Positions 28,872 through 47,493 of a DNA stretch of 64,000 nucleotides are shown in pieces (within the stretch, counting starts at the first letter, position 1; every line of letters begins with the position of its first letter). The translations under genes were made by a program, and so were the position numbers. The stretch comes from a virus: positions 21,818-85,817 of the IMG/VR virus record IMGVR_UViG_3300006749_000011, one strand, 5' to 3'. Under the pieces are notes generated by a model. That model ran no database searches, was not told the DNA's origin, and was given only the letters and a program-made list of their open reading frames with translations.

Positions 28872-29339
28872 ATGTCAAACGATATGAAACTTATAATGGA
28901 ATCTTGGAGAACAAACCAACTTTTGTTAGAATCAGGCCAAAAAAATGTTATAAACTTTGCAAAAAACATTGCATCCAATAAAGTATCAGATGAAAAAATC
29001 GAACAGGTTTTTGATAAATTAGAGAAGAATGAAGACTTTTTAAAACTTGTAGATATCTTTAAAAAATTAGAAGAAGAACCTATTGAAGAAGGAGCTTTGC
29101 TTGACGCTGAAGCAACAGTGTCGATTAAAGGAATGCAACTTATGGATTACATAAAAAGACAACCCGGCGGGAATGCTCTATTAAAAGCATCAGGCCCAAT
29201 TATGGCTATGGCTTATATATATACCAAAATAAAAATGGGTCGAGGAGATCTTGACCCTACAGATCTACAATCCGCAGCCGAAATAGCCACAAAAGGAACT
29301 AGTGCAGATCTTGTAGATATCGCCACTGGTGGTGGATAA
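28872..29339 (+). CDS. Hypothetical protein with MKLIMESW leader
   Basis: 155 aa, GAGGA RBS; leader MKLIMESWRTNQLLLE. Confidence 0.7.
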   Translation: MSNDMKLIMESWRTNQLLLESGQKNVINFAKNIASNKVSDEKIEQVFDKLEKNEDFLKLVDIFKKLEEEPIEEGALLDAEATVSIKGMQLMDYIKRQPGGNALLKASGPIMAMAYIYTKIKMGRGDLDPTDLQSAAEIATKGTSADLVDIATGGG

Positions 29340-29357
29340 AAAAAATAAAAAAATAAT

Positions 29358-29409
29358 TTGACAAATTTTCAAAACGTGTTATACTAAAAACTATTTAGAC
29401 ATAAAGAGG
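29358..29409 (+). promoter_or_regulatory. Overlapping sigma70 promoter (repeat B copy 1) and late motif/RBS (repeat A copy 2)
   Basis: TTGACA-16 nt-TATACT (with TG extension) followed by CTATTTA and GAGG. Confidence 0.8.
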
Positions 29410-29416
29410 TACCTTT

Positions 29417-30142
29417 ATGCAATTGATTATGGAAAACTGGAAACAATTTATAAAAGAAAATGTTGGCTCAAAGTTCAAAATTTTTTTAGATATGGACGGA
29501 GTTCTAGTAGCATTTACCAAAGGTCATGCAGAAGCCATCATAGCATCTATTCAAAAAGACCCAGAGACAATCAAATCTAAAAGTTCAAAAAAAATATTAA
29601 AAAAAATTAACGCCTATCAAGGAGAAGATCGAGAAGAGATTACCATAGACTTTTTAAATAATTTATTAGTTAAAAGAGACAACAAACTTGAAATGACAAA
29701 GTGGGAAAAACTAATAAAAAGTTTTCAATTTAAACCAATAACCAACAACATGGACTATTGGGTTAATTTAGAAAAGGCTGAAGGTTGTGATGAACTAGTT
29801 AAAGGTTGCCGCGATCTTGTTGGCTATGAAAATGTTTACATTTTATCTGCTCCAATAAACAACGACGAAGGCTCTTATCAAGGAAAAATGGAATGGTTAA
29901 AAAACTCTGGTCTTGGCTTTGATGAGGAGCACATTATTTTAAATTCAGAAAAACAAGAAGTGACTGATCGGTTTCCAAACGCTACATGTATTTTAGTAGA
30001 TGATAGAGAAAAATATTTAAATAAATTTGCAGATGAAGATTTGGAAAATCCTGGAATTGGAGTGTTACATTCGCCAAAAGCATCATTAAATGGAGCTAGC
30101 AACTCTTTAAACAAACTTAAAGAAATTATAAAAACTTCTTGA
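29417..30142 (+). CDS. HAD-family 5'(3')-deoxyribonucleotidase (NT5C-like) with MQLIMENW leader
   Basis: IFLDMDGVL (motif I), YILSAP (II), GKMEWL (III), ILVDDR (IV). Confidence 0.8.
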   Translation: MQLIMENWKQFIKENVGSKFKIFLDMDGVLVAFTKGHAEAIIASIQKDPETIKSKSSKKILKKINAYQGEDREEITIDFLNNLLVKRDNKLEMTKWEKLIKSFQFKPITNNMDYWVNLEKAEGCDELVKGCRDLVGYENVYILSAPINNDEGSYQGKMEWLKNSGLGFDEEHIILNSEKQEVTDRFPNATCILVDDREKYLNKFADEDLENPGIGVLHSPKASLNGASNSLNKLKEIIKTS

Positions 30143-30170
30143 CAAATTTTCAAAACGTGTTATACTAAAA
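30139..30170 (+). promoter_or_regulatory. Sigma70 promoter for primase (32-bp repeat B, copy 2)
   Basis: TTGACAAATTTTCAAAACGTGTTATACTAAAA identical to 29358..29389. Confidence 0.85.
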
Positions 30171-30184
30171 TCACGGAGGAAATT

Positions 30185-31120
30185 ATGGAGGAAAAAAGAA
30201 AGATGTTAACCGACATGCTCGGTTCATATCATCGTAAGGGTAATGAACATTTGTATCACTGTCCTTATTGTAAACACCACAAAAAGAAAATGTCTGTAAA
30301 CTTTGCAAATGGATTCTTTAAATGTTGGGTTTGCGATATTCGTGGAAAGAACATTTACAGGATTGTAAGAAAATTTGGCAATTACCAACAGAGGCAACGT
30401 TGGTTAGAGCTTGATGGTAGACTTGATCTCAAAGACTTTGATAAAATATATAAAGAAATAAACGAAATCGAAGAAGAGCCAACCTGCGACCTGCCAAAAG
30501 AAATAATTTCTCTTTGTAATAAAAGACTTCCACGCTCATCTCGTAAAGCAATTGATTATCTTCACAATAGAGGTATTGACGATTACCAAATAAAACTATG
30601 GAAAATTGGATATTGTACCGAGGGTAGATACGGAGGTAGAATCATTATCCCATCTTTCAATTCTAACGGAGATCCAAACTTCTTTATTGCTCGTTCTTAT
30701 GTCGGACACAGAATGAAGTACCTCAATCCAAGAACCACAAAAGACATTATATTTAATGAATTAATGATTGACTGGGATGAGCCTGTTACAATTGTTGAGG
30801 GAGCCTTTGATGCTATCGTCGCAGGAACACAAGGCATTCCAATTCTTGGTTCAACTCTTAGACCACAGTCTCGTTTGTTTCAAGCTCTTGCGATAAACGA
30901 CACACCAGTCTACATTGGTCTTGACCAAGATGCGGAGAAGAAAGCATCGTGGATGATTAAGAAAATGATTGAATACGACATGGAGGTCTACAAGATAGAC
31001 ACTTCTGCCGTTGAAGATGTCGGTTCTATGACTCCTCGACAATTCGAGAACGCAAAAGATAGGGCTCAACCTATAGACCCCGACTATTTCTTTTTTGATA
31101 AATTACTAAACGCTATCTAA
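30185..31120 (+). CDS. DNA primase (T4 gp61/DnaG-like)
   Basis: Zn finger CPYC...CWVC; YLHNRGI; RIIIP; TOPRIM IVEGAFDA and GLDQDA. Confidence 0.92.
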   Translation: MEEKRKMLTDMLGSYHRKGNEHLYHCPYCKHHKKKMSVNFANGFFKCWVCDIRGKNIYRIVRKFGNYQQRQRWLELDGRLDLKDFDKIYKEINEIEEEPTCDLPKEIISLCNKRLPRSSRKAIDYLHNRGIDDYQIKLWKIGYCTEGRYGGRIIIPSFNSNGDPNFFIARSYVGHRMKYLNPRTTKDIIFNELMIDWDEPVTIVEGAFDAIVAGTQGIPILGSTLRPQSRLFQALAINDTPVYIGLDQDAEKKASWMIKKMIEYDMEVYKIDTSAVEDVGSMTPRQFENAKDRAQPIDPDYFFFDKLLNAI

Positions 31121-31133
31121 CCATGGAGGATAT

Positions 31134-34100
31134 ATGATAAAAATAGCACACTTTGCGGATACACATATTCGTAATCTTAAATTTCATGACGAATACAGGT
31201 TTGTATTCAATCAGATATACAAAAAACTACAAAGCCAAAAGCCGGACTACATTGTTCATTGTGGTGACTTGGCTCATACAAAGACACAGTTGTCACCAGA
31301 GTATTTTGCTCTGGCCTCTGAGTTTTTAAAGAATTTGGCAGACATAGCACCGACCTACATCATTCTTGGGAACCATGACGGTAATCTAAAGAACTCTGAT
31401 AGGGAAGATGCTGTATCGCCTATTGTAAATGCACTAAACCACCCACAGCTCCACTTGTTGAAGAACTCTGGTCGTGTTTCTCCACAAGACGGTTTATGGT
31501 TCAATGTTCTTTCTATTTTTGATAGAGGTGCTTGGATGCGACCAAAAACCGGAGATATAAATATTGCTCTTTATCATGGTGCTGTTATGGGCTCTAGAAC
31601 AGGTTCCGGCTGGGCTATGGAACACGGAGATGATGATATTAGTATCTTCAAAGGTCATGATTATGTTATGCTTGGAGACATACACAAACCACAGATTTTA
31701 GATACTGAGGGCCGCGTTCAGTATGCTGGTTCTACAATACAACAAAACTTTTCAGAGGACGGAAGAAAAGGATACAAACTTTGGACAATTAGATCAAAAG
31801 ATGATTTTGATGCTCAACATGTTATCTTTTCAAATCCCCGACCATTTGTTACTATTAATCTAGATGACAAGGGCAAGATACCTCAACACTATCACATTCC
31901 ACATGGGTGTCGTCTTAGACTAATCTCAACTGTAAACATGGATAGCTCATCCATCCGCAAAATTACCGATTTAGCGCGTTCTAAGTACAATCCGGTGTCT
32001 TTATCCTTTTTAAACAAAGGGACGTCTAATTTCACATCCTCAGACGGTCAAGAACACAAAATGGAGAATATGCGAGATGTCTCCGTTCAAGAGAGGTATA
32101 TTCGAGAATATCTAAAAGATTATGAACTAGAAGAGGACTTGATGAGTCAAGTGCTAGATCTAAACACTAAGTATAATAAAGAGGTCGAGAAAATTGAAGA
32201 GGTACGAAGAAACGTCAAATGGAATATTAAAGAGATGGAGTTCTCAAATCTCTTTAACTATGGACAAGGTAATACTTTGGACTTTGCAAATCTCTCTGGA
32301 ACTGTTGGCATTTTTGGCAAGAACTACAGTGGGAAGTCTTCTGTTATTGATTCTGCTCTTTATGGCATTTATGGCGGAACCAGCAAAGCCGAGAAGAAGA
32401 ACGTTCACCTCGTCAATCAAAACAAAACTAAAGCCTCTATCAAGATGGTGGTCGAAGCAGATGGTCAAGAGTACCAAATTACTCGTAATCTTAATAAATC
32501 TTATAAAACCCAACGAGGAAAGTCCATCCCTGTGGCCTCTGGTGATCTTGACTTCCATAATCTCACTACCGATAGTTCTTGCAACGGTGATTCTGTAAAA
32601 GATACTGAGGCTAACATAAGAAAGATTTTTGGTAATATTGAAGACTTCATGATTACTTCCATGGCATCACAGTTGGACTCTCTTGCATTTATCAAAGAAG
32701 GGTCTACAAAGCGTAAGAATAAATTGGCCAAGTTTCTTGACCTTGACATCTTTGAACAAAAGCTAAGCTTTGCAAAGAAAGACTCTTCTGAGATATCCGC
32801 ACTAATAAAGCGTCTTAAAAATAAAAAAATTACAGAACTGTTAGTAGCCAAGCAAGAAGAGATAGAAGAAATCAATGATGATATAGACCACCAAACAGAT
32901 TTGTGCAAAAAATACAACACACGTTACGAAGAACTACTTGAAGATTTTTTAAAGATAGAAGAAGAGATTAGTTCTATTCCACAAAATATCATTGATATTG
33001 ATGAACTAGAAGATGAAATAGATCGTCTTGATTTAGAAATTCACAAAGCTGGTGTAAAAGTATCTGAAAACAAACAGCAGATAAAACAAAACCAACTTGC
33101 TATTCAACAAGCAGATGATATTGTAGACTCTATAAACAAACATAGGCTTACGAAAATTTTAGAGCAGTGTAGTGAGTTCGAAGAAGCTCTAAAGTCCTCA
33201 GAACAAGAACTTAAGAAGCTTAAAACAACAGAAAAACAATCTATTAAAAAAATCAATATGCTTCATGACCATAAGTACGATCCTGATTGTGAGTATTGCT
33301 CTAACAACAAATTTGTCAAAGATGCTACAAAAGCCAAAGATTATCTCCCAACTCTTGAAGAAGAGATTGAGGAAGTAGAAAAAATAATTGATGGTTGGAA
33401 ATTGAGTATCTTTGGCCTCGATAAAGAATCAGCTAAGAAAGAATTGCAAACTTTGGATAACAGTATAACTAAAAGAGACAAGTTTATGGCTACAAACAAG
33501 AATTTAGAAATAACAAACGAATCTCTTGTTTCTAGAATTTCTTTGATGGGTAACCAAAAATCATCTTTGGAACAAGAGCGAGATGAATATAATGCTAACC
33601 GCCAAGCGATTGAAAATCTTTCCTCCTTGGTAAAATCTAAAAACGCAGTTAAGATAAAAATGTCTGAGTCCAAAGAAAGAAAAGAAAAATGTGACAAAAA
33701 GATTCAAGATTATCTTGTTGAACTTGGAGCTGTCAAAAGTACCATCAAGCGCCTTCATGTCGAAAAGCGAGAGCAAGATGAGCTGGAAGAGTCGTTTATT
33801 GCCTATGAGTTGTTTATGCGCTGTATGCATCCCAACGGAATTGCCTATGAGATAATTAAACAGAAATTGTCGCTTATTAACGAGGAAATACAAAAGTGTC
33901 TTGCAAATATTGTCGACTTTGAAGTTATGTTCGAAGAAGATGGTCGAAACCTTGACATAAATATCAAGCATCCAAAGTATGACTCCCGTCCTATCTCCAT
34001 GGGCTCTGGTGCTGAGAAGACAATTGCTGCCATGGCTATACGCCTCGCTCTGATTGAAATAACGAACTTACCCAAGTCTACTTTGTTTATTATGGACGAA

Positions 34101-34274
34101 CCAGCAACGGCTCTTGACCAAGAACACATGGAAGGCTTTGTTCGTTTAATCGATATGATAAAGGATAAGTTCAAAACGGTGTTATTGATTTCTCACTTAG
34201 ATGTTTTAAAAGATTGTGTTGATAAGACGATAGACATACAAAAAGTCGGTGGTTATGCTAAAGTAAACTGTTAA
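31134..34274 (+). CDS. Fused Mre11/SbcD nuclease - Rad50/SbcC ATPase (gp47-gp46-like)
   Basis: DTH, GD, GNHD, HG, GDIH phosphoesterase motifs; Walker A GKNYSGKS; zinc hook CEYC in a coiled coil; signature GSGAEK; Walker B IMDEP; ISH. Confidence 0.93.
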   Translation: MIKIAHFADTHIRNLKFHDEYRFVFNQIYKKLQSQKPDYIVHCGDLAHTKTQLSPEYFALASEFLKNLADIAPTYIILGNHDGNLKNSDREDAVSPIVNALNHPQLHLLKNSGRVSPQDGLWFNVLSIFDRGAWMRPKTGDINIALYHGAVMGSRTGSGWAMEHGDDDISIFKGHDYVMLGDIHKPQILDTEGRVQYAGSTIQQNFSEDGRKGYKLWTIRSKDDFDAQHVIFSNPRPFVTINLDDKGKIPQHYHIPHGCRLRLISTVNMDSSSIRKITDLARSKYNPVSLSFLNKGTSNFTSSDGQEHKMENMRDVSVQERYIREYLKDYELEEDLMSQVLDLNTKYNKEVEKIEEVRRNVKWNIKEMEFSNLFNYGQGNTLDFANLSGTVGIFGKNYSGKSSVIDSALYGIYGGTSKAEKKNVHLVNQNKTKASIKMVVEADGQEYQITRNLNKSYKTQRGKSIPVASGDLDFHNLTTDSSCNGDSVKDTEANIRKIFGNIEDFMITSMASQLDSLAFIKEGSTKRKNKLAKFLDLDIFEQKLSFAKKDSSEISALIKRLKNKKITELLVAKQEEIEEINDDIDHQTDLCKKYNTRYEELLEDFLKIEEEISSIPQNIIDIDELEDEIDRLDLEIHKAGVKVSENKQQIKQNQLAIQQADDIVDSINKHRLTKILEQCSEFEEALKSSEQELKKLKTTEKQSIKKINMLHDHKYDPDCEYCSNNKFVKDATKAKDYLPTLEEEIEEVEKIIDGWKLSIFGLDKESAKKELQTLDNSITKRDKFMATNKNLEITNESLVSRISLMGNQKSSLEQERDEYNANRQAIENLSSLVKSKNAVKIKMSESKERKEKCDKKIQDYLVELGAVKSTIKRLHVEKREQDELEESFIAYELFMRCMHPNGIAYEIIKQKLSLINEEIQKCLANIVDFEVMFEEDGRNLDINIKHPKYDSRPISMGSGAEKTIAAMAIRLALIEITNLPKSTLFIMDEPATALDQEHMEGFVRLIDMIKDKFKTVLLISHLDVLKDCVDKTIDIQKVGGYAKVNC

Positions 34275-34284
34275 ATCTATTTCC

Positions 34285-34325
34285 AAAGCCTATTTAGTGT
34301 AAAAGCTATCTAGGCTTTTTCTTTT
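34285..34325 (+). terminator. Probable intrinsic terminator containing a late-promoter motif
   Basis: AAAGCCTA...TAGGCTTT then T-tract; CTATTTA at 34290..34296. Confidence 0.6.
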
Positions 34326-34336
34326 GGAGATTAAAG

Positions 34337-34609
34337 ATGAAACTCACAGAAAAACAAATCAAAAAGATTATCAAAGAAGAACTCAATAAAATTCTTAAAG
34401 AAAGTATGAGCCCTGATCACCCTGACTATGATCATGTTGCTGGTATTATTATGAGAACTTTTCAAAACATGATGCACCTTGCTCCATTGGTAAAACAAGG
34501 CATGGGGCATATGTTCGAAAATGACATTTATCATCATGTTGCTGAGGAAGCTCCTGAGCATGCAGAGTATATAACCCAAAGAGTAATGCAAATGCTTAAG
34601 GAAGTGTAA
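34337..34609 (+). CDS. Small protein with KEEL-type leader
   Basis: MKLTEKQIKKIIKEELNKILKE; GGAG RBS. Confidence 0.75.
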   Translation: MKLTEKQIKKIIKEELNKILKESMSPDHPDYDHVAGIIMRTFQNMMHLAPLVKQGMGHMFENDIYHHVAEEAPEHAEYITQRVMQMLKEV

Positions 34610-34884: not shown

Positions 34885-34886
34885 TC

Positions 34887-35608: not shown

Positions 35609-35610
35609 AA

Positions 35611-36027
35611 ATGTTAATAAAAATTATTAAAAAAGTAAAGGACTTGGTATGCCCACCAGCAACTCAGGACCTAGCTCTTAACACAAAGAACCGAGATGCA
35701 ACAATAAAAAAATATAATTACGGTCCTCTAAATGTTGACGAACCAGCAGATTACTGGAAAAAAATAGCTAAGTATTGGAAAACAACTGAAAAAGCAGCTA
35801 TGAAATCTGTGTGTTATAATTGCGTTGCCTTCGACATCTCTCCTCGTATGAAAGATTGTTTACCTGGAGATACTTTTGATGATGACGGTATTTTAGGATA
35901 CTGTTGGATGCACCATTTTAAATGTCATTCTGCTCGTGCCTGTCACACTTGGGCTAAAGGCGGACCAATAAAAAACAATAAAGAATCAGCAGAGTGGCAA
36001 AAGAAAAACTCTGGTGGTATGAAATGA
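35611..36027 (+). CDS. Cys/His-rich hypothetical protein
   Basis: CYNCVAF...C...GYCWMHHFKCHSARACHTW. Confidence 0.7.
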   Translation: MLIKIIKKVKDLVCPPATQDLALNTKNRDATIKKYNYGPLNVDEPADYWKKIAKYWKTTEKAAMKSVCYNCVAFDISPRMKDCLPGDTFDDDGILGYCWMHHFKCHSARACHTWAKGGPIKNNKESAEWQKKNSGGMK

Positions 36028-37082
36028 AAATAACAAAACAAGATATAAAAAGAATGATAAAAGAAGAACTCCGAAGATTTCTTGATGAAGACTTATCATT
36101 ATTAAGAGACATGACGCCCGGCGATGTTCTCGAGTACATGAGACGAGAATTGAACGGAAAGACTTGGTTTTTTTGGGATTTAGAAACAATTGGTTTTGAT
36201 GGACAGATTACACAATATGGAGCTATAGCTTATAAGATTGATGATATTGATGGTCCGATTCCAACTAAGCCATTGGCCAGATTTGATGTAAATGTTGCTT
36301 TAAATGAAGAAACACTTGAAAGACATATTCTAGAACAGGACACAATAAACAAAGCAGATAAAGTTTTTAGTGATTTTGAAAAAACCCGTGAGCGCACAAG
36401 AGAAATAGATTTTTTATTGAAATTACAAGATAAACGAAAAGAAGGAGTACCTTTCACTGTGGCTGATATGATTGGCTACACAAATTATGTAACAAGACCC
36501 GACGACAGAACTGAGGTTGAAGCTATGGAAGAATTTCTAGCATGGGTTAAAGCTTTAGGTCCAAATGTTGTTTCTGTTGGTCATAATATAAAGTCTTTTG
36601 ACAGAAATAAAATTATAAAAGAAGGGCAAAAACTTGGAATTGATACCAAGGCTTTTGAACAAATAGATATCTTCGACACAGTAAACTTCCAAAGACAAGT
36701 GCTAAAGCAAATAGCACAGTATCAAATGGAACAAGGAGATCCGAGAATGACTCGTTTCTTTGACGGAAAAGAAAAAGAAATAAAAGGCGAAGTAAAAACC
36801 ATAATGTCTTTCAATGGAAAACTTCAAAGAATGATGGATATATATGGACCAGGACCAGATTACATTCAATTGCACACGGCAATTGACGACACAAGGCAAC
36901 TAATTACTGCTTTTTTTAATATGTATACTGAAGTGAAAGACCTTATTATGACTAACGAAAAAATAAGAAACCTATCATCAGCTATAAATGTACCAAGAGC
37001 ACAAAAAGAACTAGGTACGAAAGATACAAAAGACCCATTAGATATCAGTAAAGCACTTAAACGAACAAAGAGGGGATTATGA
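36024..37082 (+). CDS. DEDDh 3'-5' exonuclease with KEEL-type leader
   Basis: ExoI WDLET, ExoII GHNIKSFD, ExoIII LHTAIDD; start at ATGA overlap giving MKITKQDIKRMIKEELRRFLDE. Confidence 0.85.
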   Translation: MKITKQDIKRMIKEELRRFLDEDLSLLRDMTPGDVLEYMRRELNGKTWFFWDLETIGFDGQITQYGAIAYKIDDIDGPIPTKPLARFDVNVALNEETLERHILEQDTINKADKVFSDFEKTRERTREIDFLLKLQDKRKEGVPFTVADMIGYTNYVTRPDDRTEVEAMEEFLAWVKALGPNVVSVGHNIKSFDRNKIIKEGQKLGIDTKAFEQIDIFDTVNFQRQVLKQIAQYQMEQGDPRMTRFFDGKEKEIKGEVKTIMSFNGKLQRMMDIYGPGPDYIQLHTAIDDTRQLITAFFNMYTEVKDLIMTNEKIRNLSSAINVPRAQKELGTKDTKDPLDISKALKRTKRGL

Positions 37083-37453: not shown

Positions 37454-38000
37454 CACAACATTAGAAATTATACAAGGACTAGCACAAGCAGCAGCAAACG
37501 TTTATGACGGAGCCCATGACGAAAGATTTTCCTATGATGGTGAATCAAGAACAATGGGTCTAAAACGAGAAGAAGGCTGTCCAATAATGGACAGCAGAGT
37601 TATAGACGGATTTAAAGTTCGTTTTTATGGAGACTCAATGATTCTTTCATATCAATCAGATATCTTATTGAAAGAAGTTTATACAGGTAGGTTTGAACAA
37701 GACATAGAATCTATGCTAAATGACATTAAAAAGTTTTTAGAAAAAGAATATAGAGCCGTAACAGGTAAATCTGTCTCTCTCACTTCTAAAGGTGAGCCAA
37801 ATATTCTTGTTCAATCAACATCAAGGGTTCGTTCTTTTGTTGAGGCTAACCAACATTTTAAAATTGGTGGAATAGAATCTATGCCGATTCTTGAACCCTC
37901 AATTGACACTACAAGAGATGTAACAAGAAAGTTTCTAGAACAATTTTCAGACAAGCGACCACCAAACGATAAACGTAAAAAAGGAGCAAGTTCAAAATGA
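37446..38000 (+). CDS. Hypothetical protein
   Basis: GGAG RBS before ATG at 37446; 184 aa. Confidence 0.7.
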   Translation: MSNTTLEIIQGLAQAAANVYDGAHDERFSYDGESRTMGLKREEGCPIMDSRVIDGFKVRFYGDSMILSYQSDILLKEVYTGRFEQDIESMLNDIKKFLEKEYRAVTGKSVSLTSKGEPNILVQSTSRVRSFVEANQHFKIGGIESMPILEPSIDTTRDVTRKFLEQFSDKRPPNDKRKKGASSK

Positions 38001-38743
38001 AAATTTCCAATGAGCAATTAAAGCAAGTTATTCGTGAAGAATTAAACAAAGTTCTTAATGAAAATATAACTGAAAATGGCACTTATCCTATAATAAATTG
38101 GCAATTAATAGAAGAGCACGAAGATACAGATACTCCTTTTGAAATTAATGATGAAGTTGTTGAGATGTTTGCTGGAGATGACGACACATGGATTCGAAAC
38201 ATCTTAGGTGATGAACGTGCCGATAAAATAAGAAAAATGTTTGAAGGAGAAACAGTAGCAGAGTTTTTTGGTAACCCTGCTAATGGGCCAGCAGTTAACC
38301 AATTCTTTTCATTAGTAGAGACCTTAACAGACGTAGAAATAAAATATCCTGTTGGTATGTTGATTCTTGGTGGTGACACACATATTCGTGGATACAAATT
38401 TACCTTTGTTCCTGGTATTGGGTTTTCCTTTGTAGGCGAAAGCGAAAATTTGATAAGCGCAGTTGAAGCAGAGGGAACTGATGGTAAGGTTTACTTTGAA
38501 CCGGGCTACACATCAACTGATAGTTTGTTTGGTAACATGGAATATGTTTTACAAAGATATGGTGTTTTAGAACTTGAAAAAGCAATAAGAATGCATGGTC
38601 GACGTTCCAGGTATAGCGGAACCTCAGTTGATGCTGTTAATTTAGATTTTAACAAACTTATAGAACTTTTAAATAATGGAACATTAGCGGCTAAATGGAG
38701 CCATAGATATTACGGTTACATTATAACAACTCCCTATGAGTAA
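37997..38743 (+). CDS. Hypothetical protein with KEEL-type leader
   Basis: MKISNEQLKQVIREELNKVLNE; ATGA-coupled. Confidence 0.75.
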   Translation: MKISNEQLKQVIREELNKVLNENITENGTYPIINWQLIEEHEDTDTPFEINDEVVEMFAGDDDTWIRNILGDERADKIRKMFEGETVAEFFGNPANGPAVNQFFSLVETLTDVEIKYPVGMLILGGDTHIRGYKFTFVPGIGFSFVGESENLISAVEAEGTDGKVYFEPGYTSTDSLFGNMEYVLQRYGVLELEKAIRMHGRRSRYSGTSVDAVNLDFNKLIELLNNGTLAAKWSHRYYGYIITTPYE

Positions 38744-40329
38744 TGACTTTAAAACTATCAAAACAAGAAATAATAAAAGAAATCCTTAAATGCGGCAAAG
38801 ATCCTCTTTATTTTATAAATAATTATTGTAGGATCTCTCACCCTCTTAAAGGTTTAATTCCTTTTAACACTTATCCATACCAAGATGATTTGGTCAAGGA
38901 CTTCAACGATTATCGCTTCACAGTTATCCTTAAAGCAAGACAGTTAGGAATCTCCACGATATCAGCTGCTTATGCTGTTTGGTTTATGTTGTTTCACAAA
39001 GAAAAGAATATCTTGGTCATGGCGACCAAGTTCGGAACAGCAGCCAACTTGGTAAAGAAAGTAAAAATGGTAATGAAAAACTTGCCAAAGTGGATGCAAG
39101 TAGCAAGTATTACAATTGACAACAGAACCTCGTTTGAACTATCAAATGGGTCATCAATCAAGGCAGTCGGAACATCAGCAGACGCTGGTCGTTCAGAGGC
39201 GCTATCTTTATTAATTATAGATGAGGCAGCACACGTTGACGGCCTTGATGACCTATGGGCAGGTCTTTACCCTACTCTATCAACAGGGGGTCGCTGTATT
39301 GCTTTATCAACGCCTATGGGCGTTGGAAACTGGTTTCATAGAACTTACATAGACGCAGAGAATGGAGACAATGAATTTCATCCTGTATCTTTGCCTTGGG
39401 ATGTTCATCCTGAGCGTGATGAAAATTGGTTTGTTAAAGAAACCAAAAACATGTCAAGAAGACAAATAGCTCAAGAGCTTGAGTGCAACTTTAATACGTC
39501 CGGTGAAACCGTCATACATCCTGATGATATTCATTGGATTTACGAAATCCAACAAGAACCAGAGTACAAAACAGGCTGGGATAGAAATATGTGGATATGG
39601 GAAAAGTATCAAGAAGGTGTTCCTTATCTTATGGTTGCTGATGTTGCCAGAGGCGATGGAGCAGACTCTTCCGTATTTCATGTACTAAGAACAGATACTA
39701 TGGATGTAGTCGCAGAATATCAAGGTAAGCCAACTATGGATCATTTTGCAAAAATTTTATTTGATGCAGGAAAAGAATATAACAATTGTCTTATGGTAAT
39801 TGAAAACGTTGGTATAGGAATAGCAGCATGTGAAAAAGTAAGAGACCTTGGGTATCCTAATCTTTATTATTCAATTAAATCAACTCATCAATATGTTGAC
39901 TCTCTAGAAGGTGAATATAACGATAGAGCTGTTATTGGCTTTACTACTTCGATGAAAACAAGACCACTAATAGTAGCTAAGTTAGAAGAATACATAAGAA
40001 ACAAATTGGTTAAACCAAAATCTTCTCGTTTGTTTCATGAGTTTAAAACATTCATATGGAACAATGGTAAGCCACAAGCTATGAGATCGTATCACGATGA
40101 TTTAATTATGGCTCTTGCAATTGCTTGTTGGGTTCGAGACACAGCTCTAGAAGTTTCGGAAAAAGATAAGTTATATCAAGAAGCAATGATAAATTCTATT
40201 AAATCATCACAGACCACAATGAATACAGCTATCAAAGGAATGCGAGGCTTTGGTAGTACCAAAACACAAGAATCGTTAGAAGACTTTCAAAAGACCTATA
40301 AAGATTTTGCATGGATTTTTAAAGGTTAG
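38743..40329 (+). CDS. terL: Terminase large subunit (T4 gp17-like)
   Basis: KCGKDPLYFI, PYQ, Walker A KARQLGIST, Walker B IIDEAAH, STPMG; nuclease ADVARG, IEN, HDDLIMA. Confidence 0.97.
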   Translation: MTLKLSKQEIIKEILKCGKDPLYFINNYCRISHPLKGLIPFNTYPYQDDLVKDFNDYRFTVILKARQLGISTISAAYAVWFMLFHKEKNILVMATKFGTAANLVKKVKMVMKNLPKWMQVASITIDNRTSFELSNGSSIKAVGTSADAGRSEALSLLIIDEAAHVDGLDDLWAGLYPTLSTGGRCIALSTPMGVGNWFHRTYIDAENGDNEFHPVSLPWDVHPERDENWFVKETKNMSRRQIAQELECNFNTSGETVIHPDDIHWIYEIQQEPEYKTGWDRNMWIWEKYQEGVPYLMVADVARGDGADSSVFHVLRTDTMDVVAEYQGKPTMDHFAKILFDAGKEYNNCLMVIENVGIGIAACEKVRDLGYPNLYYSIKSTHQYVDSLEGEYNDRAVIGFTTSMKTRPLIVAKLEEYIRNKLVKPKSSRLFHEFKTFIWNNGKPQAMRSYHDDLIMALAIACWVRDTALEVSEKDKLYQEAMINSIKSSQTTMNTAIKGMRGFGSTKTQESLEDFQKTYKDFAWIFKG

Positions 40330-40330
40330 C

Positions 40331-40370: not shown

Positions 40371-40388
40371 CTACGAAAAGGATGAGCT

Positions 40389-42305
40389 ATGCCAAAATAT
40401 AAAAAGTCGCCTTACAATCCACAGTCGGATTTATTCAAGGCTTTAACAAAATTGTTGTCCGGCCCAATAACACAAAGAAGAACACAAACTGGTCGAATGC
40501 TGCGGAGAAGACAGCTAGATAACTATGCAACAAAATTTAAATCAGCATCTGGTGCACAGTTTAAAAAATGGGAATATAATCCCATAAACAACGTTACCCT
40601 TAACATGATATCAAATAGAAACAGAGCTGAGCGTTATGTTGATTTTGATGAAATGGAATACATGCCTGAGATAGCATCATCATTGGATATTTATGCTGAT
40701 GAGATGACAACTCATACTGCGCTTCGCCCAATGCTTAATATTAAATGTGCGAATGAAGAGATTAAACACATCCTCCATAACTTATATCATAATGTTTTGA
40801 ATATTGAACACAATCTTTTTGGTTGGGCAAGAACAATGTGTAAGTACGGTGATTTCTTTCTATATCTTGATATTGATGAAGATTTAGGAATTCGATCCGC
40901 TATTGGTTTACCGACAAGAGAGATTGAGCGTCTTGAGGGAGAGGACCAAAGTAATCCAAATTACGTTCAATACCAATGGAACACAGCAGGACTAACTCTG
41001 GAAAATTGGCAAGTTGCTCATTTCAGAATCCTTGGTAATGACAAACACTCTCCTTATGGAACATCTGTTCTCGAAGCTTGTAGGCGTATCCACCGTCAGC
41101 TTATACTATTAGAAGATGCCATGATGGCTTATCGTATTGTTCGTGCTCCTGAGCGTCGTTTGTTTAAGATTGACGTTGGTGGTATTCCACCGCAAGAAGT
41201 TGAACAGTACATGCAAAAAGTCATGACTCAGTTAAAACGACACTCTGTTGTTGACCCAACCACTGGTCGTGTTGATTTACGCTACAACCCCTTGTCAATC
41301 GAAGAAGACTATTATATACCAATTCGTGGAGGCCAATCAGCTACTGACATCTCAAGTTTACCAGGTGCTTCTTACAATGGTGGTATCGATGATGTTAAAT
41401 ACCTTAGAGATAAGTTGTTTGCTGCTCTCAAAATACCACAGTCTTACTTGACAATGGGTGAGGGCGCATCAGAAGATAAAACTACCCTTGCACAAAAGGA
41501 CATTCGCTTTGCAAGAACAATTCAAAGACTTCAACGTGTAGCAATAGCAGAACTCGAAAAGATTGGAATTATTCACCTTTACACGCTTGGTTATAGAAAC
41601 GATGATCTATTAACTTTCAAGCTACAGCTAAACAATCCGTCCAAAATTGCTGAATTACAAGAGCTCGAGCATTGGGACAAAAAGTTTCAAGTTGCTGCGA
41701 ACGCAACAGAAGGATACTTCTCAAAGCGCTGGATAGCAGAAAACATGTTTGGGCTATCTGAAGATGAATTTCTTAGAAACCAAAGAGAAATGTTTTTTGA
41801 CAAGAAGTACATGGCCAAACTTGAAGCGGCTGCTGCTGGTGGAGAAGGTGGAGAAGAACCTGGAGGAGGCGGTGGGCTTGCTGGTGGGCTTGGAGATCTT
41901 GGCGGAGCAGGTGGAGACTTAGAAGGTGACCTTGGTGGTGACCTTGGCGGTGGAGACACCGGTGGAGGTGATGTCGGCGGCGACGAAGGGGGTGACACTG
42001 ATCTGCTCGCCGAACCCTCTGCAAAACGTGATGAGCCACCACCAATTAGAGGAAACTATAAACGTCACCAGTCTTCTTATGACAAAGGCGGCATGAAAAA
42101 ATCAATGCTCGGAGCAACAGGTATAGAAGCTGCTCATTCAACTGGTCGTAACATATATAAAGGATACGTTGGGAACGAATATTCTCTCTCAAATGTATCC
42201 GGCGGCTATTTAGAAGAAGAACAAAAACTAGAAACAGTATCTCGAGAAGTTGAGATGCTTATCGAATCATTAAACACAAAGGAGAAACAAAATGAAGATA
42301 ACTAA
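40389..42305 (+). CDS. Portal protein (T4 gp20-like)
   Basis: PEIASSLDIYADE, LEDAMMAYRIVRAPERRLFKIDVG, EDYYIP.RGG, DVKYLRDKLFAALKIP; Gly/Asp-rich C-terminal tail. Confidence 0.97.
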   Translation: MPKYKKSPYNPQSDLFKALTKLLSGPITQRRTQTGRMLRRRQLDNYATKFKSASGAQFKKWEYNPINNVTLNMISNRNRAERYVDFDEMEYMPEIASSLDIYADEMTTHTALRPMLNIKCANEEIKHILHNLYHNVLNIEHNLFGWARTMCKYGDFFLYLDIDEDLGIRSAIGLPTREIERLEGEDQSNPNYVQYQWNTAGLTLENWQVAHFRILGNDKHSPYGTSVLEACRRIHRQLILLEDAMMAYRIVRAPERRLFKIDVGGIPPQEVEQYMQKVMTQLKRHSVVDPTTGRVDLRYNPLSIEEDYYIPIRGGQSATDISSLPGASYNGGIDDVKYLRDKLFAALKIPQSYLTMGEGASEDKTTLAQKDIRFARTIQRLQRVAIAELEKIGIIHLYTLGYRNDDLLTFKLQLNNPSKIAELQELEHWDKKFQVAANATEGYFSKRWIAENMFGLSEDEFLRNQREMFFDKKYMAKLEAAAAGGEGGEEPGGGGGLAGGLGDLGGAGGDLEGDLGGDLGGGDTGGGDVGGDEGGDTDLLAEPSAKRDEPPPIRGNYKRHQSSYDKGGMKKSMLGATGIEAAHSTGRNIYKGYVGNEYSLSNVSGGYLEEEQKLETVSREVEMLIESLNTKEKQNEDN

Positions 42306-42612
42306 TAAACAACTAAAACAAATAATCAAGGAAGAACTTGCAGAGGCTATGGGAATGGACTATGCTTCTGATGAGAACATGTCAAGACGAGAAGAATTGG
42401 GACACATTGCCAGTATGCCAACAGAACAACTTATCCAAGCACTAGATGCTATTAAAGCAGATACTCTAGAGATGGGACAAGTTATCGAAATGCTTGATTC
42501 AAATACTGATGGAGAGAAGATAAAAGCAATTGCTATGCATATTTTAAAATTTGATCCTCAAGACAACCAAGCTCAAGGTGTGATGGGCACTCGTGTTCCT
42601 ACCGGATTATAA
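42292..42612 (+). CDS. Small protein with KEEL-type leader
   Basis: MKITNKQLKQIIKEELAE; AAGGAG RBS. Confidence 0.75.
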   Translation: MKITNKQLKQIIKEELAEAMGMDYASDENMSRREELGHIASMPTEQLIQALDAIKADTLEMGQVIEMLDSNTDGEKIKAIAMHILKFDPQDNQAQGVMGTRVPTGL

Positions 42613-42630
42613 TTTAATAAGGAGAAAATT

Positions 42631-43434: not shown

Positions 43435-44110
43435 ACCACCACAAGACATTATAACAGAACTATTAAAAGAAGACATTGGAGTTGACATCAATAGACCACC
43501 TATAACAGTTAACTTAAAACAAAGAATGTCAAATAGAAAAATTGGTGTGAATGTTGATGAGCCAACTTCTATCAACTACAAACCACAAATTAGTGTTGAT
43601 GTTGTTAACCCTAATGAAAGAAAGCATGAATTTTCTCTCAATATGAGAGAAGCGCTCAATGGTGATCTGATGTTTATGGATCACAAAGATATAGACATAA
43701 TACTTATGAAAGAAAAAAAGAAAATTGTTGCATTTCCGAAAGATTTGATGTCTGAAATTGTATATGGTGCCGAGTCTAGATTAATGGAGCATTTAAGAAA
43801 AAAAGGTGTTGTCCAGTTTGATTCTATTCAAGGCGGAAACGTCTATGGTTCTCTTGAAGGTAAAATACTTGAATCAAATGAAACAGATGAAATAGCAATA
43901 ACAGTCTTTGAATTAAGTGAATGGATTAAGTCTGAAGTTGGACCTTCTGCTCGTAAAGAAAAATATACACAACAAATCAAAAACAGAGAATTGTACCCCA
44001 ACGAAGAAGAAGCAACAGAACTAGGAGAAGTTCCCCATGCTGAGGAAAAGGGTTCAATAAAGCAACATAATTTATTTGCACCATACTTATACGGCAGATA
44101 TACTTATTAG
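43427..44110 (+). CDS. Hypothetical head-module protein
   Basis: GGAG RBS before ATG at 43427. Confidence 0.7.
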   Translation: MYKPPQDIITELLKEDIGVDINRPPITVNLKQRMSNRKIGVNVDEPTSINYKPQISVDVVNPNERKHEFSLNMREALNGDLMFMDHKDIDIILMKEKKKIVAFPKDLMSEIVYGAESRLMEHLRKKGVVQFDSIQGGNVYGSLEGKILESNETDEIAITVFELSEWIKSEVGPSARKEKYTQQIKNRELYPNEEEATELGEVPHAEEKGSIKQHNLFAPYLYGRYTY

Positions 44111-44120
44111 GAGAAATTAG

Positions 44121-45362
44121 ATGAAAATCAGAATAATAAAAAACAAAAAACAACTTAATGAAGAGTTTTATTTTGAACAAGGCTTTGACCAAGAACAGAG
44201 ACCTCCGGCAAACCCCTTATCGTTAAAATTGGTTAAGCTTATTATTAGCAAATTACCAGGTGCAAAAAAATTTAGTATGCGTACTCACAAAATGCGACCA
44301 CTACAAGCATCAGGAGCAGAAGGGGTTGTTGTCGGTATAGATGACAAAAGAGTAATAAAACTTTTTCATGATGTTAGCAACGCTGCAAAAAACCTGCACT
44401 TGGTTTCTCAAGATATTCCTGAAACCGCTCAAGTTTACTCTATGGGAAAAATTATTCTTAATGATCCTGTGGTTTATTATAAATTTGGGTCTTCTCATAA
44501 TGCGAGAACTCTCGCTAATCCAACAAAAGAATTATACTTTATAGTCATGCAGAGAGTTGTTCCGGATAGTTATATATATCGATATGTCGATGAAGTTTGG
44601 AAAAAACTAAATATGGTTTTCCAAACAACCTCAGATGCTTTTGTAAAGATGTTTTCCACAGGTGACCCTTTCATCAAACGAAGAATAAATAAAATTTATG
44701 AAAAAATAATGGCAGACCCAGAATTTTACAATGTTCCAGAGAAATTGCAGAATAATTATAAACAAGGAAAGGTTGACACTTTCGACATTCTTATAAAAAG
44801 TAAGAAAGATCTGGCAAGATTCAACACAGCTCTTGGGGTTTATAAAAAGAAAGAAAGAAAAGCAAGAAAACAAAAAGGTTTAAAAGGAGCAGAAGCTCAA
44901 TTATATTTGTTATATGATGTTAAAGGTTATCCAGTTAGTTTAAAAAATCTTATTCTGAATAAAATAGGAGCTAAAGAAGACATACCTTTTATCGATTCTA
45001 TTTGGTCTACACTCATGCAGTCTCCTGAGATGAAAAAAACAGCAAAGAAACAACACCCTTTAAACAAAAACAAAGGAGCCACTTTAGCAGATGATTTACA
45101 AGAAATTACAAATTTAATAAAGGCTATAAGAGTTGACAAAGGTTTAGCTTGGAACGATATTCACCAAGAACAGTTTGGTAGAAATGAAAGGGGAGACCTA
45201 ATAGGTCTAGACTTGGGAATCAAAGGAACAGCAAAAGAACTAGCAGCCGCTCCGGGTAAATTTGAAGCTGCAAACATTATAAGAGTTGCCACAAACTTTG
45301 ACCAACAAGGTCAACCCACAATGACTTTAGCAGAATCTAAAAAAAAAAGTATAAAACGCTAA
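44121..45362 (+). CDS. Protein-kinase-like fold enzyme
   Basis: Gly loop ASGAEGVV, VIK lysine, hinge FIVMQRV, catalytic loop WNDIHQEQ, DLG in the DFG position; large helical insert. Confidence 0.65.
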   Translation: MKIRIIKNKKQLNEEFYFEQGFDQEQRPPANPLSLKLVKLIISKLPGAKKFSMRTHKMRPLQASGAEGVVVGIDDKRVIKLFHDVSNAAKNLHLVSQDIPETAQVYSMGKIILNDPVVYYKFGSSHNARTLANPTKELYFIVMQRVVPDSYIYRYVDEVWKKLNMVFQTTSDAFVKMFSTGDPFIKRRINKIYEKIMADPEFYNVPEKLQNNYKQGKVDTFDILIKSKKDLARFNTALGVYKKKERKARKQKGLKGAEAQLYLLYDVKGYPVSLKNLILNKIGAKEDIPFIDSIWSTLMQSPEMKKTAKKQHPLNKNKGATLADDLQEITNLIKAIRVDKGLAWNDIHQEQFGRNERGDLIGLDLGIKGTAKELAAAPGKFEAANIIRVATNFDQQGQPTMTLAESKKKSIKR

Positions 45363-45859
45363 ACGTTTTTGATTTTGATAGAACCCTGTTTTGGACCATC
45401 GAGAAAGAAGAGGGATCAAAAAAATGGGAAAATATATATGGAAAACCATACCCTCACAAAGGGTGGTTCGGAAGAGCTGAGAGTCTAGATGTGAAGTTGA
45501 ACATTCCAATCAACAAGACAATGAAAAAAATTTATGATACTTTAAGGTCTGATCCTGATGGGCTTTGTGTTTTAAATTCAAATCGATATATCGGACTTGA
45601 AAAAACAATTAAAAGTTTTTTGACATATCATGGTTTCAAAATGGACGCGGTTTTGTTAAAGACTGGAAAAGACAACAAAGGACACAACTTGCAGGAATTT
45701 TGGAATGATTACCCAGAGGTTACTATTATAAACTGCTTTGATGATAAGGATGCGTCTCTAAATCACTACAAGAAATTAGAAGATAGGTATTCTATTTATA
45801 GAGAAGATTTGACTTTTAATATCTACAAAGTCACAAAAAACGGAATAACAAAAGTTTAA
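45341..45859 (+). CDS. HAD phosphatase (Swiss-Army-Knife RNA-repair HAD-like), in the -1 frame of the kinase ORF
   Basis: -1 frame reads KYKTLNVFDFDRTLF...GWF...LNSNR...K...CFDDK; bounded upstream by TAA at 45338..45340; no ATG/GTG/TTG before the DxD motif. Confidence 0.7.
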   Translation, partial: KKKYKTLNVFDFDRTLFWTIEKEEGSKKWENIYGKPYPHKGWFGRAESLDVKLNIPINKTMKKIYDTLRSDPDGLCVLNSNRYIGLEKTIKSFLTYHGFKMDAVLLKTGKDNKGHNLQEFWNDYPEVTIINCFDDKDASLNHYKKLEDRYSIYREDLTFNIYKVTKNGITKV

Positions 45860-45869
45860 TAGGAGAAAA

Positions 45870-46184
45870 ATGCTTAACTTTATACTTGCCGCTTATGGCT
45901 TAACATTTATCCTTGTATATGGAAAGATATTCGAATCTCTCCGACCAAACAAAGACCCAAACAAAATGTGGACACTTTTGTTCTATTGTCCTTTGTGTAT
46001 GGGGTTTTGGGTTGGAGCATTTTTATTTTGCATTAACAATCAAACAGAACTATTTACATTTGATTATACAATCGCCAATTTCTTTATTTGCGGTTGGATT
46101 TCTGCTGGAACATCTTATCTGATTTCTATGTTGGTTGATGATTTTGGCTTTCGCATTTCAAAAATTGGAGATAAAGATGAATAA
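45870..46184 (+). CDS. Membrane protein with CxxC (DUF1360-like)
   Basis: Three hydrophobic segments; LFYCPLCMGFWVG. Confidence 0.6.
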   Translation: MLNFILAAYGLTFILVYGKIFESLRPNKDPNKMWTLLFYCPLCMGFWVGAFLFCINNQTELFTFDYTIANFFICGWISAGTSYLISMLVDDFGFRISKIGDKDE

Positions 46185-46230
46185 AAAATGGATGTTACAA
46201 CCGGTTCGTCGTTGCTGTTCAGGCAGCTGA
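46177..46230 (+). CDS. 17-aa micro-ORF MNKKWMLQPVRRCCSGS
   Basis: GGAG RBS 6 nt upstream; overlaps the stop of 45870..46184. Confidence 0.4.
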   Translation: MNKKWMLQPVRRCCSGS

Positions 46231-46272
46231 CTCAAGCGGGTTGCGCCCGCATTATTTATTATGGAGAAAAAA

Positions 46273-46773
46273 ATGAAAATTACAAACCAACAATTAAGAA
46301 GAATAATTAAAGAAGAACTTGATACTGTTTTAAGTGAAGGAAAAGTTTCTTATTCCGGAGTTGTTCTTGATCCTCAAAGCGTAGAGGCTTTAAAACAAGC
46401 CGCACAACAAATGGGTGTGCCTGAAGGTTTTGTTCACGAAACAAAAGCTGGTAATCCTTTGCCTCATCACATGACAATTGTACCTTTCTCACCTATTGTT
46501 CATCCAAAAGGTAAACATGACTTTAGTGCTGATTATCCTGTTGGTGAACAAGTTTCACTACAAGTAACTCACATTGGATTTGATGATAAAGCTATGGCTG
46601 CTAAGGTCGAACCACCAGCTCCAATTTCTAAGAAAGTAAAGTTTCCACATATTACAATAGCTATTCCTGAGGGTGGAAAACCTTTTAATTCAAATAAAAT
46701 TCCACAGGAAAACTTTCAACCTTTGCTACAACCACTAACTGTAACAGGTGTGGTAGAAGAGGTAGAATCATGA
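46273..46773 (+). CDS. 2H phosphoesterase (2',3'-cyclic phosphodiesterase-like) with KEEL-type leader
   Basis: Two HxT motifs (HHMTI, PHITIA) and GGKPFNSNKI, as in tRNA-ligase CPDase domains; leader MKITNQQLRRIIKEELDTVLSE. Confidence 0.8.
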   Translation: MKITNQQLRRIIKEELDTVLSEGKVSYSGVVLDPQSVEALKQAAQQMGVPEGFVHETKAGNPLPHHMTIVPFSPIVHPKGKHDFSADYPVGEQVSLQVTHIGFDDKAMAAKVEPPAPISKKVKFPHITIAIPEGGKPFNSNKIPQENFQPLLQPLTVTGVVEEVES

Positions 46774-47489
46774 AAATAACTAATGGACAATTGAGAAAAA
46801 TAATCAAAGAAGAGTTGTCTTATGTTTTAAGAGAAAACATGGGTTTAAAAATGTTTGTCCTTGTCGGTCCACCATCTGTTGGTAAATCAACTTGGATTAA
46901 CAGCACATTTGGTGAAAATAGACCCTATGTTATCAATCGTGATGATATAGTTGAAAATGTAGCTTCTGAGTATGGTTGGACTTATGACGATATGTTTGCA
47001 ACACCACCAGAGGACGCACAAATTGGCAGTGTAGATCAAAAATATGGAGAAGTTCAAGAATCACCAAACTGGATGACTTGGGCAAAATCTGTTTTTTCTA
47101 CTGTAATGGAAGCAAATGGTAAGGTCCACAGCTTATTTGCACAAAGAGTATCAGGTGCTGTGGGTAGTGGTCAAGATATTGTCGTCGATATGACAAATAT
47201 GAATGCAAGAGCAAGATCTGGTGCACTAAAAGCAATTGAAGGTGCTGAAGATCAATATGAAAAAATTGCAGTTGTGTTTGAATCTAAAGGTGCTGAGGAA
47301 TTTATCAAAGCTGTTGCTCAAAAAAGAGCCGAAGCAGCTGCGAGAATGGGTAAATCTAAAACAATTCCTCCCGCTGTATTTGACAGAATGTTTGCATCGT
47401 TTGAAGATGTAAGTATGGATGAAGGGTTTGACAAAATAGTAAGTGTAGACAATAGACAATTACTACAAAAACTAGCTAGTGAGATGTAA
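46770..47489 (+). CDS. P-loop kinase (AAA_33/polynucleotide-kinase-like) with KEEL-type leader
   Basis: VLVGPPSVGKST, INRDD, VVDMTN...R, IPPAVFDRMF...EGF; leader MKITNGQLRKIIKEELSYVLRE. Confidence 0.8.
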   Translation: MKITNGQLRKIIKEELSYVLRENMGLKMFVLVGPPSVGKSTWINSTFGENRPYVINRDDIVENVASEYGWTYDDMFATPPEDAQIGSVDQKYGEVQESPNWMTWAKSVFSTVMEANGKVHSLFAQRVSGAVGSGQDIVVDMTNMNARARSGALKAIEGAEDQYEKIAVVFESKGAEEFIKAVAQKRAEAAARMGKSKTIPPAVFDRMFASFEDVSMDEGFDKIVSVDNRQLLQKLASEM

Positions 47490-47493
47490 AACA

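Follow-up and report, generated by a model that had tools for sequence, protein, structure and literature searches.

Two interchangeable N-terminal tags on unrelated proteins of uncultured T4-like phages, candidate capsid-targeting propeptides

Results

Two families of N-terminal tags in the window

The DNA studied here, referred to as the window, is a stretch of 64,000 nucleotides corresponding to bases 21818–85817 of an 85.8-kb contig from an uncultured marine T4-like phage (IMG/VR record IMGVR_UViG_3300006749_000011), whose completeness is estimated at ~47%. All the long open reading frames (ORFs) of the window, and all the genes given below by window coordinates, are on the + strand. Eight of them encode proteins that begin with one of two short tags, here called type A (six genes) and type B (two genes), which we interpret as probable capsid-targeting propeptides cut by the head protease of the phage.

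The type-A tag is a peptide of 22 amino acids, MK(I/L)TxxxLKxIIKEELxxV(L/M)xE, found, each time exactly at the ATG, at the beginning of the following ORFs: 34337–34609 (90 aa; tag in residues 1–22, 34337–34402, MKLTEKQIKKIIKEELNKILKE), 36024–37082 (352 aa, a DEDDh 3'-5' exonuclease; tag at 36024–36089), 37997–38743 (248 aa, ending at the start of the large terminase gene), 42292–42612 (106 aa, overlapping the 3' end of the portal gene, the position of T4 gene 67), 46273–46773 (166 aa, a 2H, or 2',3'-cyclic, phosphodiesterase) and 46770–47489 (239 aa, a P-loop kinase of AAA_33/polynucleotide-kinase-like type). The six leaders have the common start MK(I/L)(T/S)xxQ(L/I)(K/R)x(I/V/M)I(K/R)EEL. A profile built from them and run over the complete 85.8-kb contig, translated in its six reading frames, recovered only these six (E ≤ 1e-10, next best 0.8), and a chance resemblance can therefore be excluded; the original prediction, made on this DNA from the letters alone, had singled out the same six ORFs as sharing near-identical leaders. 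Any two leaders have 8–14 of 18 residues in common, 2–7 of the identical residues of each pair are encoded by different codons, and the DNA upstream of the six genes is unrelated from one to the other. Thus, type A is conserved as a peptide and not as DNA. In five of the six leaders an L-x-E motif has its P1 at residue 22, while in the product of 42292 an L-A-E, at residues 16–18, ends at residue 18; moreover, an I-(K/R)-E at residues 12–14 is invariant in all six.

The type-B tag, of 14 amino acids, MKL(I/L)(M/F)E(N/S)WR(R/K)(F/Y)LxE, is found in the products of 28872–29339 (tag from the Met at 28884, MKLIMESWRTNQLLLE) and 29417–30142 (241 aa, a 5'-nucleotidase of NT5C/HAD type; tag MQLIMENWKQFIKE). 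Both have MxLIMExW followed by a terminal hydrophobic-x-Glu, with the common motif M(K/Q)LIME(S/N)W, and the two genes also have a common upstream DNA cassette. The original prediction had recognised the motif of this pair but had grouped it with the six leaders; type B is instead a second tag family, independent of type A. A further supposed member, the 413-aa ORF at 44121–45362, has a start (MKIRIIKNKKQLNE) that fits neither tag profile, so that the number of tagged proteins, put at about nine in the prediction, becomes eight.

Beside this last ORF we observed a HAD-type phosphatase frame (45339–45859), open at 45341–45859 and with the catalytic FDFDRT at 45368, which has no canonical start ahead of this motif. 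The frame corresponds to the −1 register of ORF 44121–45362, entered from a run of ten A about 15 nt ahead of the stop of that ORF, and the run is either a homopolymer sequencing error or a site of slippage that fuses the 413-aa protein to the HAD domain. No homologue of the HAD frame was found in the fetched relatives, and a close relative (L006) has the homologue of 44121 alone.

The tags are widespread in uncultured phages and virus-restricted

To follow the tags outside the contig we collected, by means of the protease, 80 related loci (70–97% identity). The type-A profile gave 131 matches in 55 of them, all on the strand of the protease and 127 beginning exactly at a Met. When the tag was removed from the 133 tagged proteins (window included), these fell into 79 mutually unrelated cargo clusters, and one representative per cluster was used to build a logo. 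In this logo E14 and E15 are invariant, I12 is present in 98% of the families, position 20 has a hydrophobic residue in 85% and position 22 has Glu in 75%, whereas the composition is random from residue 23. A hydrophobic-x-Glu with P1 at residues 18–26 occurs in 76 of the 79 families, and the conservation stops at E22. Of 199 related loci, 54 contained the type-B tag, which was counted 68 times in all and headed many cargos; its logo, xKL(I/L)(M/F)E(N/S/G)WR(R/K)(F/Y)(L/V/I)xE, has invariant E6 and W8, and here the conservation stops at E14 (85%).

An exhaustive HMMER search with a 72-sequence type-A profile matched, at E ≤ 1e-3, the representatives of 10,889 protein clusters (clustered at 50% identity). 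The members of this set that were sampled are all metagenomic, and the carriers are all uncultured. A stringent degenerate DNA pattern of 48 nt derived from the tag was found in at least 120 stretches of IMG/VR, often 2–4 per locus, whereas prokaryotic genomes (596 Gb) gave two matches, of which one at least is a mis-binned fragment of this phage lineage. The tag is virus-restricted, as the capsid-targeting interpretation predicts.

Complete relatives of 184–186 kb have 4–8 type-A genes each, in one case seven in a head-to-tail array; in the eight larger relatives searched the number was 4–9, and one further relative, 47% complete, gave one weak match. The uncultured phage LR756508 (484 kb) has 18 matches of a variant, M(R/K)(L/I)(S/T)E(R/K)KLR(K/R)I(V/I)KEE, some adjoining its S77 protease. 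By tblastn and profile searches no clear type-A tag was found in cultured phages. Weak tag-like starts were seen at two places (4822–5421 and 8154–8912) in the cultured Flavobacterium phage immuto (L086, immuto 13-6C; host Flavobacterium sp. LMO8), in which an NT5C nucleotidase (gene 183) begins with MKKVMGNLADLLLEE and the hypothetical gene 190 with MKKSQLRQIIKEALDAS; this phage, the nearest cultured candidate, is a possible experimental system.

The two tags swap on the same cargo and recur within polyproteins

Three cargo families, namely the 2H phosphodiesterase, the P-loop kinase and a family of unrecognised function (STIHFMDWL), differ in their tag between phages, with A in one and B in another. 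Type A heads 13 and type B 46 of the 76 homologues of the 2H protein 46273, while the other 17 have a variant tag or neither of the two; about 9 of these 17, judged as leaderless from the called protein sequences (P0211 and P0241 are examples), begin right at the conserved YSGVVLD, that is, at the domain. The kinase of the window (46770) has type A, but its homologue in another locus (L073), with 51% identity, has type B. Since two unrelated tags swap on the same cargo and both end in hydrophobic-x-Glu, we suggest that they have a shared function, which is read at this motif. The modular nature claimed in the original prediction is therefore borne out, with at least 79 unrelated cargo families and with the same cargo found behind A, B or no tag.

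Several tagged proteins contain more than one tag. In fact, 129 of the 150 best matches of the type-A profile have 2–4 copies (e.g., the metagenomic proteins P0004, P0007, P0009, P0022, P0034 and P0077), with a median module of 123 aa, and one ORF of a seven-gene tag array (G009, L222:778–1632, − strand) holds two tags. Of 153 internal copies, 68 have no Met at position 1, and therefore they are not separately initiated genes: in these polyproteins the tag is kept as a peptide element. This arrangement suggests that the head protease could cut multi-tag chains into modules. A hydrophobic-x-Glu precedes internal tags in 68% of cases against 24%; we set this enrichment aside as evidence because former ribosome-binding sites, when read in frame, also yield Glu.

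These observations bear on an alternative, that the tag is a generic helix, acting as a coiled-coil handle for oligomerisation or solubility or as an enhancer of translation initiation, and spread by recombination among hypervariable genes with no targeting role. The tag is in fact an amphipathic Lys/Glu-rich helix with hydrophobic residues spaced by 3–4 positions, and its genes have an A-rich start (ATG AAA ATH ACN), both of which such a helix would explain. Nevertheless, identical residues written with different codons downstream of differing DNA are not what it predicts, internal copies that keep the peptide without Met cannot be translation starts, and two unrelated families that both end exactly at a protease motif would be surprising for a solubility handle. 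We regard this explanation as very improbable.

Cargo enzymes

The enzyme functions originally assigned to four of the tagged proteins all hold. The product of 46273 has two HxT motifs, H65-H66-M-T68 and H126-x-T128, in which the His residues and T68 are invariant and T128 is conserved in at least 90% of 60 homologues. In its AlphaFold model (pLDDT 90.7) the tag is a separate helix (residues 5–24) that runs into the first strand of the domain, and Foldseek matched the model to the CNPase catalytic domain with probability 1.00, and also to CPD domains of tRNA-ligase type from giant viruses. The protein is a 2H phosphoesterase, with its two HxT/S motifs placed on a CNPase/LigT-like fold. We considered also the anti-CBASS enzyme Acb1 as a possible identity; its structures matched more weakly (TM ~0.4) than CNPase or the tRNA-ligase CPD domains.

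In the kinase 46770 (AAA_33/PNK-like, 5.5e-13) the Pfam domain begins at residue 28. The exonuclease 36024 (RNase_T, 9.5e-5) has the three DEDDh motifs DLET, GHNIKSFD (pattern GHNxxxFD) and HTAIDD, and its family includes eight tagged homologues in eight sources (the window and seven related loci). The nucleotidase 29417 belongs to PHROG 2643 (6.8e-12). Pfam and PHROG scans of the window proteins assigned 34337, 37997, 42292 and 28872 to no recognisable family, and the cargo of 37997 had no match in the ESM Atlas either. Searches of the PDB by sequence only with the 2H, kinase and exonuclease cargos were uninformative. We do not claim a complete RNA-repair pathway, since this contig and three complete relatives gave no Rnl2-type RNA ligase (PF09414).

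The tagged genes lie in the head and packaging cluster

By its gene content and sequence similarities the head module of the window is T4-like, with large terminase (TerL), portal protein, prohead protease, acidic helical scaffold and gp23-like capsid protein. The TerL (38743–40329) shares 45% identity with its counterpart in Flavobacterium phage vB_FspM_immuto and 43% with the one in Microcystis phage Mel-JY01, those of T4-like cyanophages being more distant. The tag genes are grouped on both sides of the pair formed by TerL and the gp20-like portal gene (40389–42305); the latter has, at 41830–42000, a long Gly/Asp/Glu-rich insert of low complexity near the C-terminus of the protein (GGEGGEEPGGGGGLAGGLGDLGG...GGDEGGD). 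The prohead maturation protease (47479–48123), which follows the kinase gene, is of the T4 gp21 family (Peptidase_S77 PF03420, 1.4e-32; PHROG 207, 1.5e-60); it is 38% identical to T4 gp21 (E 3e-26), keeps the active-site blocks GEL(D/N)HP and SSRGLGS, and its true start is likely the ATG at 47494.

The cleavage motif of the tags is shared by capsid and core proteins. The major capsid protein (MCP; 60979–62901; PHROG 138, 9.9e-69) has an N-terminal propeptide of ~59 aa (60979–61155) with four L-x-E motifs, invariant in the eight sequences compared (window and seven relatives), the last of them always 17 residues ahead of PIVRR. The acidic helical scaffold or core protein, in the position of gp22 (59915–60955), has 16 (L/I)xE sites and is a candidate docking partner of the tags.

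Also outside the window the tag accompanies these genes. The large contigs reached through the tag alone encode one S77 protease each, on the same strand (five of five), as does LR756508. We then took a census of the neighbours of 271 tag ORFs in 119 loci reached through the tag alone: the most frequent were TerL (66 loci), portal (62), the post-portal genes 42631 and 43376 (44 and 39) and the protease (29), and small conserved genes equivalent to 37353, 37079 and 35219 were near tags in 59, 51 and 49 loci. Tag genes have two hot spots, 2–15 kb upstream and 1–4 kb downstream of the end of the portal gene; where a locus includes this gene, all the tag genes (145) are on its strand.

This census bears on the idea that the tag is read by another phage or host machine, for instance a modifying enzyme (as for the leaders of ribosomally synthesised and post-translationally modified peptides, RiPPs), a chaperone, or a membrane or secretion factor. 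A conserved leader followed by a hypervariable remainder does resemble RiPP precursors, tandem arrays of small tagged genes and multi-tag polyproteins occur in such systems, and the invariant central IIKEE is not accounted for by cleavage alone. However, only head and packaging genes and small conserved phage genes are frequent near the tags, and no modifying enzyme or transporter was present among the top 25 neighbour families of the 119 loci; moreover, the cargo includes complete folded enzymes of 166–352 aa, and two unrelated, interchangeable tags both end in hydrophobic-x-Glu. A Sec/Tat signal does not fit, the tag being highly charged and without a hydrophobic core: the type-A logo is amphipathic, is rich in Lys and Glu, and lacks any hydrophobic stretch. 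We consider such a machine quite unlikely.

Possible late expression and depletion of the cleavage motif in type-A cargo

A promoter-like motif, (A)ACTATTTA, with the core CTATTTA, is present in 21 copies on the + strand of the contig and in two on the − strand; 10 of the 21 lie 10–60 nt upstream of gene starts (p ~5e-9). Copies on the + strand of the window include those at 28846, 29391, 34290, 40364, 48097, 48740, 56981, 58754 and 59872. Portal, scaffold, fibre-like genes, 48123 and 48766 have one of the ten copies ahead of their start, and the same holds for three tag genes and for a further gene that lies upstream of the window. As for the tag genes, the CTATTTAG motif is 19 nt upstream of 28872, 19 nt upstream of 29417 and 40 nt upstream of 34337, and the remaining ones are packed into the same co-directional gene strings. 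The late promoter of T4, TATAAATA, was not found upstream of any of 132 tag genes, and CTATTTA may replace it.

If the cargo is enclosed in a prohead together with a protease that recognises L/I-x-E, selection against internal sites is to be expected. In type-A cargo the observed/expected ratio of (L/I)xE was 0.77 and 0.89, while in the same proteins (L/I)xD gave 1.19–1.26 and the reverse Ex(L/I) 1.35–1.40. The normalised LxE/LxD ratio was 0.64 (0.47–0.86) and 0.71 (0.58–0.86), compared with 1.30 (1.08–1.61) in non-tagged conserved genes, a control set that includes core proteins naturally rich in sites. Such a depletion is not expected of a solubility handle.

It is expected, on the other hand, of a propeptide that is removed by the protease without being a packaging signal. 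According to this explanation the enzymes would be kept inactive, or tethered where assembly takes place, up to a late cut by the prohead protease or by a different protease specific for Glu, and they would work in the producing cell instead of being injected. The hydrophobic-x-Glu end, the co-occurrence with the S77 protease and the depletion are accounted for equally well; in addition, in the model the helix of the tag lies against strand one of the 2H domain, and the cargo is acidic, unlike the T4 internal proteins. It has been reported, however, that T4 gp21 is active only in the assembled prohead (PMC9026906), which means that the substrate must be inside. Furthermore, a regulatory propeptide would be unexpected on ~10,000 unrelated and mostly small proteins (median ~104 aa), and the leaderless 2H homologues indicate that the domain folds without the tag. 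This explanation appears to us unlikely.

Other features near the head genes

A 1046-aa ORF at 31134–34274 combines an N-terminal Mre11-like phosphoesterase (T4 gp47-like) with a Rad50/SbcC-like ATPase (gp46-like), and is kept as one gene in 34 tag-found loci. Directly after the protease, a 139-aa protein (48123–48542) starts with MNKQELKKILKPLIKECIKEVIFE, a tag-like amphipathic helix with three I-x-E motifs; it fits neither tag profile, is conserved in 21 tag-found loci and could belong to the core proteins, with a propeptide of its own. A phage-encoded bS21 ribosomal protein (TIGR00030, 1e-12) is found at 48532–48738, two genes past the protease; in Microcystis phage Mel-JY01 the corresponding gene is annotated as RpsU. 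It is followed at 48766–50593 by three neighbouring paralogues of 119, 121 and 366 aa, with the common N-terminus (N)NVGSYQV(S/A)GKP and a common C-terminal TGSGV(T/D)E (TGLDGV in the first). These paralogues, a 1771-aa ORF (50593–55908) and fibre-like genes form an insertion of ~11 kb between protease and scaffold, which is absent from cultured relatives.

Discussion

The tags exist, are modular, interchangeable and virus-restricted, end in the motif of the gp21-family proteases, co-occur with an S77 protease and sit in the head and packaging cluster. The explanation that we favour, and that is probably correct, is that they are capsid-targeting propeptides cut by the head protease, an expanded and non-homologous analogue of the capsid-targeting sequence (CTS) of T4. 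By analogy with T4, the cargo would be made late in infection with an N-terminal amphipathic helix of type A or type B, the helix would bind a component of the assembling prohead core, and the cargo would be enclosed as the shell forms. The gp21-family protease would then cut after the Glu of the terminal hydrophobic-x-Glu, possibly also after the I-K-E at residues 12–14, and the mature protein, freed inside the head, would exit together with the DNA when the next cell is infected. The capsid-targeting role was already put forward in the original prediction, and it is supported by the S77 protease, the hydrophobic-x-Glu end, the modularity, the virus restriction, the TerL, portal and protease neighbours and the depletion of the motif in type-A cargo.

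Several observations weigh against this interpretation. Core binding, packaging, cleavage and ejection are all taken over by analogy from T4, and no homology to the T4 CTS (MKTYQEFIAE) was detected, the profiles of types A and B giving no match on the IPII and IPIII frames of T4 at E ≤ 10. Homology to T4 gp67 (LIKEEK...FLIE) or gp68 was also considered and rejected, only IKEE being alignable. With 22 residues against 10, type A is about twice as long as the CTS. Its most conserved stretch, IIKEE (residues 11–15), lies in the middle of the tag and is unexplained by a simple cut at the end; it may be a docking determinant or a second, I-K-E, cut site. The cargo is mostly acidic (across families, median length 104 aa, median isoelectric point 5.1, below 6 in 54 of 79), unlike the basic internal proteins of T4. 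In some complete relatives tag genes are far from the head genes, and CTATTTA is a putative late promoter. Finally, the depletion of the motif is weak in type-B cargo (LxE/LxD 0.91, 0.71–1.14), besides being measured against a control set with site-rich core proteins.

If the tagged enzymes are injected, their substrates would be nucleic acids or nucleotides, and their action would begin as soon as the infection does. A broader picture, which we put forward tentatively, is that a large uncultured group of marine T4-type phages has an open cargo platform, in which the graft of 14–22 residues makes of any gene a virion-delivered effector. More than 10,000 injected proteins might then exist, some as polyproteins cut by the head protease, including a 2H phosphodiesterase with a PNK-like kinase, a DEDDh exonuclease and a nucleotidase that would act on host defences before phage expression. 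Should this be true, phage-injected proteins would be a major and fast-diversifying arm of marine phage biology, well beyond the three or four of T4, and each of thousands of unrelated proteins would bear a readable address. From sequence only, it would then be possible to list candidate effectors of the first minutes, for anti-defence or host take-over, in uncultured phages. The 2H phosphodiesterase and the kinase next to the protease suggest a pre-packaged chemistry of RNA ends or cyclic nucleotides, which would be a new timing for such counter-defence. The natural swaps between A, B and no tag on the same cargo are a ready-made experiment on the role of the tag, and the tags could carry protein-packaging technology of T4 style to other hosts.

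Comparison with known systems

In T4, gp21 cuts after the Glu of L/I-X-E, and the first 10 residues of IPIII are enough for head targeting, residues 4 and 7 being involved in targeting and 8 and 10 in processing (PMC9026906). The internal proteins of T-even phages are diverse and have only the CTS in common (PMC3012670); in the T4 record MKTYQEFIAE is found on both IPII and IPIII. The loading of varied proteins by T4-like phages has already been proposed as a role of the CTS (PMC9026906; PMC3012670), and its cargo includes an enzyme, Alt, as well as engineered green fluorescent protein and nucleases (PMC9026906; PMC3012670). The likeness to the CTS, which is removed by gp21 from IPII and IPIII and also from IPI and Alt, consists in a short N-terminal propeptide on unrelated proteins, a protease of the gp21 family, a hydrophobic-x-Glu end and a diverse, rapidly evolving cargo. 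The phages described here differ from T4 in having two interchangeable tag families in one lineage, and in scale, with 6+2 genes in this half-genome and 10,889 clusters overall against 3–4 proteins in T4. Their cargo differs as well, being mostly acidic and including recognisable nucleic-acid enzymes, and there are multi-tag polyproteins.

In phiKZ-like giant phages (phiKZ gp175, 201phi2-1, SPN3US) inner-body and ejection proteins have propeptides that are cut at S/A-x-E. Also in these phages many head-internal proteins are cut after Glu by a diverged gp21 homologue, at redundant propeptide sites (PMC9026906). The propeptides, however, are long, there is no single short common tag and the cleavage motif differs at P3; moreover, those cases rest on virion proteomics, the present one on gene sequences.

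More distant parallels are the encapsulins and the MuF proteins, in which a short peptide or a conserved N-terminal module, respectively, directs variable cargo into a shell of HK97 fold. Encapsulin peptides are usually C-terminal and uncleaved, and the MuF module of phage-head polymorphic toxins is a folded domain of large size; the tags here are N-terminal and short, and no element of either type turned up. In the literature searched we found no publication describing these tags. The kind of system is known from T4; the novelty lies in the tags and in the fact that they are interchangeable, in the scale, in the enzymes among the cargo and in the polyproteins.

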